Positions 25,519 to 27,593 of a stretch of DNA of 64,000 nucleotides are shown here, in pieces. The stretch comes from Escherichia coli (GTDB taxonomy: Bacteria; Pseudomonadota; Gammaproteobacteria; Enterobacterales; Enterobacteriaceae), in assembly GCF_050920415.1 (NCBI RefSeq), contig NZ_CP169309.1. One strand, 5' to 3'. How positions within the stretch are numbered: the first letter of the stretch is position 1; each line of letters begins with the position of its first letter. The notes under the pieces were generated by a model. The model did not search any database. It saw only the letters and a program-made list of their open reading frames with translations, and was not told the origin of the DNA. The translations under genes were made by a program, and so were the position numbers.

Positions 25519-26337
25519 ATGGAAAACTATGCTGTTTTTGGTAATCCAATAGCCCACAGCAAATCGCCATTCATTCATCAGCAATTTGCTCAGCAATTGA
25601 ATATTGAACATCCCTATGGGCGCGTGCTGGCACCTATCAATGATTTCATTAACACACTGAACGCTTTCTTTAGTGCTGGTGGTAAAGGAGCGAATGTGAC
25701 GGTGCCTTTTAAAGAAGAGGCCTTTGCCAGAGCTGATGAACTTACTGAACGGGCAGCGTTGGCTGGTGCTGTTAATACCCTCAAGCGGTTAGAAGATGGA
25801 CGCCTGCTGGGTGACAATACCGATGGCGTAGGCTTGTTAAGCGATCTGGAACGTCTGTCTTTTATCCGCCCAGGTTTACGTATTCTACTCATCGGCGCTG
25901 GTGGGGCGTCTCGTGGTGTATTACTTCCACTCCTTTCTCTGGACTGCGCGGTGACAATCACTAATCGGACGGTATCCCGCGCGGAAGAGTTGGCTAAATT
26001 GTTTGCGCACACGGGCAGTATTCAGGCGTTGGGTATGGACGAACTGGAGGGGCATGAGTTCGATCTCATTATTAATGCAACATCCAGTGGCATCAGTGGT
26101 GATATTCCCGCGATCCCGGCATCGCTCATTCATTCAGGCATGTGTTGCTATGACATGTTCTATCAGAAAGGAAAAACACCTTTTCTGGCATGGTGTGAGC
26201 TGCGAGGTTCAAAGCGTAATGCGGATGGATTGGGGATGCTGGTGGCACAGGCGGCTCATGCCTTTCTTCTCTGGCACGGTGTTCTGCCTGACATAGAACC
26301 AGTTATAAAGCAATTGCAGGAGGAGTTGTCCGCGTGA
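25519..26337 (+). CDS. aroE: Shikimate dehydrogenase AroE (272 aa)
   Basis: ORF (from internal Met) [39 protein letters not shown]... Confidence 0.95.
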
Positions 26338-26591
26338 ATCAGGCCATCCAGTTTCCGGACAGGGAAGAGTGGAACGAGAGTAAAAAATGCGTTTGTTTTC
26401 CCGCTCTTGTAAATGGTATGCAGCTCACTTGCGCTATTACTGGAGAGAGTCTGGCGAACCGCTTTGCAGGAGATACGCCAGAACAGTGGTTAGCGAGTTT
26501 TCGTCAGCATCGCTGGGACCTGGAAGAAGAAGCAGAAAGCTTGATTCAGGATCAAAGCGAAGATGATCAAGGCTGGGTTTGGTTACCCTGA
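26334..26591 (+). CDS. yrdB: DUF1488 protein YrdB (85 aa)
   Basis: [49 protein letters not shown]...; start overlaps aroE stop. Confidence 0.85.
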
Positions 26592-27121
26592 TCCAGATAC
26601 TCGTCCTTCCATTTCACGTAGTTATTCGCGGAATAGCGTAATCCGGCCTTCTCTTCATCACTTAACGGGCGGATCTGTTTGACGGGGCTACCGAGATACA
26701 GATATCCGCTCTCCAGCCGTTTATTTTGTGGTACCAGGCTACCCGCACCAATCATCACATCATCTTCTACTATTGCACCATCAAGTAAAATTGATGCCAT
26801 CCCAACCAACACTCGATTGCCAATGGTACAGCCGTGGAGCATCACCTTATGACCAACAGTGACATCTTCGCCAATGGTTAATGGGTTGCCATCTGGGTTG
26901 TATGAGGACTTATGGGTGACATGCAACATACTGCCATCCTGGATATTGGTGCGTGCTCCAATCTGTACATAATGTACATCACCACGAATCACAACGAGTG
27001 GCCAGATCCCCACATCATCAGCCAAACGAACGTCACCGATCACTACACTACTATCGTCGATCATTACGCGCTGACCGATTTGTGGAAAAAGATCGCGGTA
27101 TGGGCGTAAAACATCAGACAT
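26567..27121 (-). CDS. yrdA: Gamma-carbonic-anhydrase-like hexapeptide-repeat protein YrdA (184 aa)
   Basis: ORF (trimmed to Met at 27121) MSDVLRPYRDLFPQIGQRVMIDDSSVVIGDVRLADDVGIWPLVVIRGDVHYVQIG...; 3' end overlaps yrdB by 25 nt. Confidence 0.9.
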   Translation of the reverse strand: MSDVLRPYRDLFPQIGQRVMIDDSSVVIGDVRLADDVGIWPLVVIRGDVHYVQIGARTNIQDGSMLHVTHKSSYNPDGNPLTIGEDVTVGHKVMLHGCTIGNRVLVGMASILLDGAIVEDDVMIGAGSLVPQNKRLESGYLYLGSPVKQIRPLSDEEKAGLRYSANNYVKWKDEYLDQGNQTQP

Positions 27122-27273
27122 ACTTACCTCAACAATAAATGATTTACTAATGACTTTGGGTGCATTATTGGCCTTGTGCAAGTCTTTTAGTATGCAAAAA
27201 AGCACCGTTTTGTGTGCGAATGCAGCAAAAAGGGTGAAAAAACAACAAACAGAAAAAAAGATCAAAAAAGTAC

Positions 27274-27301
27274 TTGTGCAAAAAAATGGGATCCCTATAA
27301 T
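27274..27301 (+). promoter_or_regulatory. rrnD P1 promoter (-35 TTGTGC / 16 bp / -10 TATAAT, GC-rich discriminator)
   Basis: Hexamers at 27274-27279 and 27296-27301 followed by GCGCCTCC discriminator; A/T-rich UP/FIS region upstream (27230-27270). Confidence 0.65.
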
Positions 27302-27381
27302 GCGCCTCCGTTGAGACGACAATGTGAAACACTTCACAAGATGGTCGGAACAACGAAGAGAAAAAATCCTGAAATTCAGGG

Positions 27382-27409
27382 TTGACTCTGAAAGAGGAAA
27401 GCGTAATAT
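27382..27409 (+). promoter_or_regulatory. rrnD P2 promoter (-35 TTGACT / -10 TAATAT, discriminator GCGCCACC)
   Basis: GGTTGACTCTGAAAGAGGAAAGCGTAATATACGCCACCTCGCGACAGTGAGC matches the conserved rrn P2 region. Confidence 0.7.
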
Positions 27410-27593
27410 ACGCCACCTCGCGACAGTGAGCTGAAAGCCGCGTCGCAACTGCTCTTTAACAATTTATCAGACAATCTGTGTGGGCACTCGAAGATACGGA
27501 TTCTTAACGTCGCAAGACGAAAAATGAATACCAAGTCTCAAGAGTGAACACGTAATTCATTACGAAGTTTAATTCTTTGAGCATCAAACTTTT

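Follow-up and report, generated by a model that had tools for sequence, protein, structure and literature searches.

Conserved stop codons at the convergent coding overlap of yrdB and yrdA in Escherichia coli and related bacteria

The genes yrdB and yrdA of Escherichia coli converge without a spacer and share 25 nt of coding sequence, and each gene ends at a conserved position within the reading frame of the other. The explanation that we favor, and that we consider likely to be correct, is an ordinary tail-to-tail overlap which is evolutionarily frozen by mutually locked stop codons and lies at a spacer-less junction with Rho-dependent termination, the complementary mRNA tails being a by-product. 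The overlap was analyzed in a 64,000-nt stretch of E. coli DNA (hereafter the window), and was compared with the corresponding junction in other Enterobacteriaceae and in more distant Gammaproteobacteria.

Geometry and conservation of the overlap

Both reading frames are genuine protein-coding genes. YrdB is a Pfam DUF1488 protein (581 homologues carry PF07369) with a solved homologue, PDB 2GPI, and YrdA is a gamma-carbonic-anhydrase-like hexapeptide-repeat protein whose residues 2-184 match the E. coli 'Protein YrdA' entries PDB 3TIO and 3TIS (E = 1.4e-120), with a solved construct that extends to P184. The two coding sequences lie on opposite strands and have 3' nucleotides in common, which makes them a convergent overlapping gene pair (Table 1). 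A plus-strand gene run, yrdD-tsaC-aroE-yrdB, reaches the junction from the aroE side, and on the other side yrdA diverges from the rrnD rRNA operon.

The sequence and the RefSeq annotation confirm the overlap that had been predicted from the DNA alone, and its earlier description as the last eight codons of each gene is accurate when the stop codon is counted, since each gene contributes to the shared segment its stop codon, its last seven sense codons and a single base of the sense codon before those. The same coordinates are found in the RefSeq annotation of the nearest genome, E. coli MFDS1022581 (99.9% identical). The region is ~95% identical to most E. coli, and the RefSeq annotation of K-12 MG1655 likewise contains a 25-nt overlap between yrdA (3429236-3429790, plus strand) and yrdB (3429766-3430023, minus strand), so the overlap is already known from its long presence in the K-12 annotation. 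The aroE stop and the yrdB start also share nucleotides, and a 4-nt same-strand overlap of this kind is the usual signature of translational coupling.

Table 1. Features at and around the yrdB/yrdA junction (positions in the window)
Feature	Position	Strand	Description	Source
aroE (shikimate dehydrogenase)	25519-26337	+	upstream neighbor of yrdB	
aroE stop/yrdB start	26334-26337	+	4 nt shared, GTGA (yrdB GTG, aroE TGA)	
yrdB CDS	26334-26591	+	GTG start, 85 aa, TGA at 26589-26591	ORF list, sequence, RefSeq
Mapped K-12 3' end	~26445		K-12 3429912; 5 nt beyond hairpin stem	
Hairpin	26450-26482	-	yrdA 3' UTR, antisense within yrdB codons 40-50; no U-tract	
Convergent coding overlap	26567-26591	both	25 nt	sequence, per-site table
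yrdA stop	26567-26569	-	TGA, reverse complement of plus-strand TCA	
yrdB stop	26589-26591	+	TGA, inside YrdA codons 178 (Gln, CAG) and 177 (NNT)	
yrdA CDS	26567-27121	-	184 aa, ATG at 27121-27119	ORF list, sequence, RefSeq
-10 hexamer of yrdA-internal antisense RNA	26968-26973	+	CATAAT	
Start of yrdA-internal antisense RNA	~26980		mapped by coordinates	
Ysr197 sub-threshold Rfam match	27231-27472	+	over rrnD promoter/leader	
16S rRNA gene	from 27594			

Codon positions 1, 2 and 3 of yrdB lie opposite positions 2, 1 and 3 of yrdA, the phase written (123:213) in the notation of Lillo and Krakauer (2007, PMC2174442). Because the third positions coincide, any change at a first or second position alters both proteins. 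The yrdA stop spans the third base of YrdB codon 78 plus the CA of Gln79 (plus strand T/CA, the slash marking the codon boundary), and the yrdB stop spans the CA of YrdA Gln178 plus the third base of YrdA codon 177, so that each TGA is the antisense of T/CA in an 'x-Gln' codon pair of the partner. As a consequence, the C-terminus of each protein reads x-Q plus six further residues, and for as long as the partner Gln (CAR) is kept the stop must be TGA; the single yrdA TAA stop among the loci described below (L018) occurs together with Tyr at YrdB position 79.

A scan with a YrdB alignment, limited to a single genome for each species, recovered 80 loci from many Enterobacteriaceae genera, which together with the window, MFDS1022581 and K-12 gave 83 loci. 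The 25-nt geometry is kept in 80 of these 83 Escherichia and other Enterobacteriaceae loci, and the yrdB stop is TGA in all 83. The 80 comprise 78 exact cases plus two complete genomes, L055 (Kluyvera genomosp. 3 YDC799) and L079 (Enterobacter sp. EA-1), each with a single frameshift within yrdA and an intact 3' geometry. These two were at one stage candidates for exceptions, but were rejected as such because the frameshifts are internal and leave the 3' geometry unchanged; in each case the cause is pseudogenization or else an error of long-read assembly. The three real exceptions (L078, L056 and L059) have all lost the yrdA stop: in L078 the next stop creates a 40-nt overlap, and in L056 and L059 the antisense reading frame covers 286 nt, the whole of yrdB. 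In L056 (Phytobacter diazotrophicus) and L059 (Kosakonia sp. S29) the yrdA stop is removed by a change of YrdB Asp78 to Glu (GAG), and the open yrdA frame (positions ~2473-2758) would encode a putative YrdA extension of ~87 residues.

Codon usage was counted in 81 loci (the 83 without MFDS1022581 and K-12). YrdB codon 78 encodes 10 different amino acids and has T as its third base in 79 of 81 loci; the neighboring codon 77 is mostly Asp (GAC 43, GAT 34), with a third base that is T in 34 loci and C in 47. On the other strand, YrdA codon 177 encodes seven different amino acids, always with a third-base T (81 of 81), and uses only GCT for Ala and only AGT for Ser, and codon 178 is Gln with one His (CAG 77, CAA 3, CAC 1). 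Since the residue at codons 78 and 177 varies yet the third base stays T, both stop positions are under selection; retention of this base despite amino-acid turnover is direct evidence that purifying selection holds the two stops in place. The check proposed along with the original prediction, conservation of both stop positions in orthologues, thus comes out in its favor, and neither gene stops earlier. Where neither a Trp nor a stop codon dictates the base, shared third positions have an entropy of 1.3-1.7 bits, similar to that of flanking third positions, and because they are as free as their flanks no extra nucleotide-level constraint attributable to an RNA duplex or structure is seen.

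The locus in the window is a recombination mosaic with breakpoints near both ends of yrdB. The body of yrdB (26338-26566) is 97% identical to E. albertii and Escherichia sp. E1V33, 96.9% to E. whittamii and 90% to K-12, whereas the flanking aroE (25519-26337) and yrdA (26592-27121) segments are 95-96% identical to K-12 versus 85-94% to E. albertii, E1V33 and E. whittamii.

Contigs from representatives of the small DUF1488 family were inspected at the same junction to extend the comparison beyond these loci. The aroE-yrdB and yrdA genes converge without a spacer in nine outgroup lineages, from Vibrio to Pantoea, with overlaps of 4 nt in Vibrio fortis (TTAA) and a second Vibrio-like contig, 7 nt in a metagenome-assembled genome, 13 nt in Moellerella and an Edaphovirga-like contig, 25 nt in Rouxiella (with stops that differ from those of Escherichia) and one further contig, 28 nt in Edwardsiella and 46 nt in Pantoea stewartii. 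All overlap lengths observed (4, 7, 13, 25, 28, 40, 46 and 286 nt) are of the form 3k+1 and all are in one codon phase, a regularity which indicates that the gene ends shifted only where stop codons were gained or lost, indels playing no part. The register has therefore been kept since before the split of Vibrionaceae and Enterobacterales. A model based on stop-codon mutation predicts such shifts of gene ends and fits the frequencies of convergent phases in E. coli (PMC2174442). The spacer-less arrangement is not universal, because in one short scaffold (L091, 524 nt) yrdB is followed by AT-rich non-coding DNA.

Constraint on the two C-termini

It had been proposed that the overlap constrains both C-termini. 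This holds mechanically, since the third positions coincide, but the constraint is lopsided: the YrdB motif is conserved and the YrdA tail is variable. The conserved C-terminus of YrdB reads E-D-x-Q-G-W-x-W-L-S/P, in which G80 and W83 never vary, and residues 81-84 form a predicted beta-strand in the AF2 model (mean pLDDT 87), so the conserved GW-x-WL motif is also predicted to be a structured strand. By comparison, the last helix of YrdA (155-176) ends at L176, and the tail that follows the invariant Y175-L176 is 0-12 residues long and differs in sequence across families. Residues 178-184 of YrdA are coil with pLDDT < 50 in an AF2 model that is itself of low confidence (mean pLDDT 62.6), which weakly suggests that the tail is disordered, and for most solved gamma-carbonic-anhydrase homologues the alignment to YrdA goes no further than about residue 170-176.

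Several residues of the YrdA tail can be traced to codons of YrdB. For example, P184 comes from Gly80, Q/H183 from Trp81 and Q/H181 from Trp83, and N/S180 is set by the Leu84 codon, TTR or CTN. At the pair formed by YrdB 82 (V/I/L/F/Y) and YrdA 182 (T/I/S/N/Y), substitutions are coupled, the change of YrdB V82 to I, F, Y or L going with a change of YrdA T182 to I, N, Y or S, respectively. At paired codons the changes in YrdB are conservative and those in YrdA radical, and BLOSUM-based conservation ratios are lower for YrdA than for YrdB at every variable codon pair. We infer that the C-terminal strand of YrdB (Q-G-W-x-W-L) is the constrained partner and that the last seven residues of YrdA (Q-x-N/S-Q/H-x-Q-P) are tolerated as a passenger tail whose sequence yrdB dictates.

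Two residues of YrdA bear on this view. In Enterobacteriaceae P184 is invariant and Q178 nearly so. The invariance of P184 is forced by the invariant Gly80 of YrdB and is therefore uninformative by itself. Q178 is tied to YrdB through nothing but the third base of codon 85; either C or T there gives Gln, and C is present in 73 of 77 loci, a bias that may reflect selection on YrdA itself. The YrdA tail may therefore still have a function of its own.

Transcripts and RNA structure at the junction

A terminator and promoter scan of 26000-27500 found no intrinsic-terminator-like site at or near the overlap, and there is no G+C-rich stem with a U-tract on both strands between the genes, as a bidirectional intrinsic terminator would have. 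In the absence of such a terminator, both mRNAs must run into the coding sequence of the partner. Antisense pairing of the two transcripts, another element of the original prediction, follows from the coding overlap itself and is supported by published Term-seq, Rho and excludon data. These transcript data come from K-12 and not from the strain analyzed here, in which the hairpin described below is weaker and the yrdB segment is a divergent allele. In K-12 the dominant 3' end on the plus strand, which is the yrdA sense strand in that genome, is at 3429912, 122 nt past the yrdA stop and inside antisense yrdB (Adams et al. 2021, PMC7815308, supplementary file 1). The 3' regions of the yrdA and yrdB mRNAs are thus complementary over at least ~147 nt in K-12. 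On the K-12 yrdB strand a Rho termination region is reported at 3429916 (Rho score 2.48, p = 1.8e-7), with downstream/upstream reads of 79/98 in untreated cells versus 408/204 with bicyclomycin, so that yrdB read-through is limited by Rho (PMC7815308). In addition, ExcludonFinder lists yrdA-yrdB among 165 convergent excludons of MG1655, reported in at least 50% of 58 RNA-seq samples (PMC12288877).

A hairpin formed by the inverted repeat CTGGCG...CGCCAG within yrdB, in the antisense yrdA 3' UTR, falls at the K-12 Term-seq 3' end and at the coordinate given for the Rho region. Its fold energy is -17.9 kcal/mol in K-12 (z = -3.4) and -13.7 kcal/mol in the window (z = -2.0). Per-locus folds place it in Escherichia, Citrobacter and some further genera, accompanied by a few compensatory changes. 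RNAalifold on 79 sequences returned no consensus pairs for the hairpin, and the proposed structure is paired in 67.7% of cells versus 64.1% in shuffles; it was therefore set aside as a family-wide conserved element and is treated as lineage-limited. A third CTGGCG copy (yrdB codons 53-54) permits an alternative hairpin in Klebsiella- and Raoultella-like genomes. A second candidate, the near-palindrome GATCAAGG...CCCTGATC across the overlap, was rejected as a conserved hairpin because its outer arms need Asp at YrdA position 177 and are missing from most genera.

A search against Rfam at a permissive E-value gave no match at the junction, in yrdB or in yrdA; the only matches, to 16S rRNA, to tRNAs and below threshold, fall within or next to the adjacent rRNA operon. 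One of the sub-threshold matches, to Ysr197 (96 bits, with a gathering score of 167), is most probably due to the conserved rRNA leader and not to a separate sRNA.

Explanations for the junction and comparison with known systems

The explanation favored here builds on gene ends that moved by gain and loss of stop codons and on a 25-nt version that is fixed in Enterobacteriaceae. Selection keeps the T of T/CA in each partner and so locks each TGA; without its stop, YrdA would gain 5 to 87 residues, and loss of the stop is presumably selected against for that reason. The YrdA tail would be read off the strand opposite yrdB once the last helix has ended. Read-through from aroE-yrdB into antisense yrdA is limited by Rho, the K-12 3' end on the yrdA side, just past the hairpin, fits exonuclease trimming back after Rho-dependent termination, and the complementary 3' tails would be a by-product of the gene arrangement. 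The interference between the yrdA and aroE-yrdB transcripts that the original prediction had also implied is probably weak.

This pair resembles other prokaryotic convergent overlaps in that the 3' ends of two genuine genes on opposite strands overlap, with an origin that fits the stop-codon-mutation model, and the Vibrio-like outgroup junctions have the classic 4-nt TTAA form (PMC2174442). It differs from the modal 4-nt convergent overlap in its length of 25 nt, its (123:213) phase is found in just 22% of those E. coli convergent overlaps that exceed 4 bp (PMC2174442), and its register is conserved unusually deeply. The case is thus typical in kind and somewhat unusual in length, phase and depth of register conservation. 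Of the genes that take part in the 58 convergent overlaps of E. coli, only 20% carry a rho-independent terminator (PMC2174442). Bidirectional intrinsic terminators of convergent genes occupy the same place, between converging genes, but this junction lacks their G+C-rich stem flanked by A- and U-tracts. The K-12 3' end, 5 nt past a stable stem with no U-tract, is like the hairpin-protected, trimmed 3' ends associated with Rho termination (Adams et al. 2021, PMC7815308), for which that paper cites Dar and Sorek (2018) on hairpin protection after exonuclease trimming; here, however, the Rho region is reported for the yrdB strand, and the hairpin in the window is weaker and is not conserved across the family.

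As one of ~58 convergent overlaps in E. coli, and as a pair that is already listed, since 2025, as a transcript-level excludon, the junction carries little weight as a discovery. The comparative work adds a textbook example of two genes that lock each other's stop codons, in which a TGA antisense to an x-Gln pair of the partner, a T held through amino-acid changes and length changes in three-base steps are all visible. If the overlap does regulate expression, it would serve as a conserved and simple case in which to test termination and interference where a junction has no terminator.

Three kinds of alternative bear on whether the overlap is real, on what it does to the proteins and on what it does to the transcripts. 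That one gene in fact stops earlier, leaving an artefact of annotation or sequencing and no true coding overlap, is scarcely credible: assembly errors or pseudogenes do occur at the locus, as the yrdA frameshifts in L055 and L079 illustrate, but 80 of 83 loci, spread over many genera, have identical stops, conservation of YrdB extends to its final residues, the solved YrdA construct reaches P184 and the T at the third base persists while the amino acid changes, and this reading was rejected on that conservation. It is also very improbable that both C-terminal tails are functional, with YrdA requiring Q-x-N-Q-x-Q-P for trimer contacts or partner binding, for example. Selection on the yrdA stop position and the near-constancy of P184 and Q178 in Enterobacteriaceae are in line with such a requirement, but P184 is dictated by YrdB Gly80, Q178 depends on no YrdB residue and only on one third base, and residues 179, 182 and 183 change radically as they track conservative changes in YrdB; tails of unrelated sequence, or no tail at all, in other families and the early end of the alignment to most solved homologues also argue against it.

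The remaining alternatives assign a function to the transcripts. In a functional convergent excludon, the complementary 3' regions would make aroE-yrdB and yrdA antagonistic through polymerase interference, RNase III cleavage of the duplex or both, a proposal that we consider unlikely. The pair is like convergent excludons in having opposite-strand neighbors with overlapping transcripts and is named in the MG1655 'excludome' (PMC12288877), and a 3' end 122 nt inside antisense yrdB, a potential duplex of at least 147 nt, the lack of an intrinsic terminator and a spacer-less layout in a fixed phase conserved from Vibrio to Escherichia are all compatible with antagonism. However, classic excludons involve long-UTR overlap and reciprocal expression, whereas the overlap of yrdB and yrdA is forced by their coding sequences and the pair is known as an excludon from transcript overlap alone, a coverage-based call that coding overlap makes near-automatic once both genes are expressed; among the papers found, none reports an experiment with reciprocal expression of yrdA and yrdB. 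Freely drifting shared third positions and a 3' hairpin without a family-wide consensus also count against the proposal. Among the p19 dsRNA clusters listed, those at this locus cover the 5' part of yrdA and aroE, with none at the 3' junction (PMC7373196), which may speak against it as well. A stronger version, in which the junction is a selected device where head-on transcription and the 3' duplex couple tsaC-aroE-yrdB inversely to yrdA, which starts beside the rrnD promoters, and where collision and Rho replace a terminator, seems to us improbable. The persistence of the spacer-less arrangement across several orders of Gammaproteobacteria is nevertheless beyond the obvious neutral expectation, and selection on transcript overlap could contribute to it.

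The one antisense test at yrdA, which also bears on antagonism, was made with a different antisense RNA that starts inside the gene: mutation of its promoter left expression of yrdA::lacZ unchanged (Dornenburg et al. 2010, PMC2912661). The -10 hexamer and start of this RNA are located in the window as given in Table 1, and the p19 dsRNA duplex cluster of yrdA falls in the same 5' part of the gene as this internal promoter.
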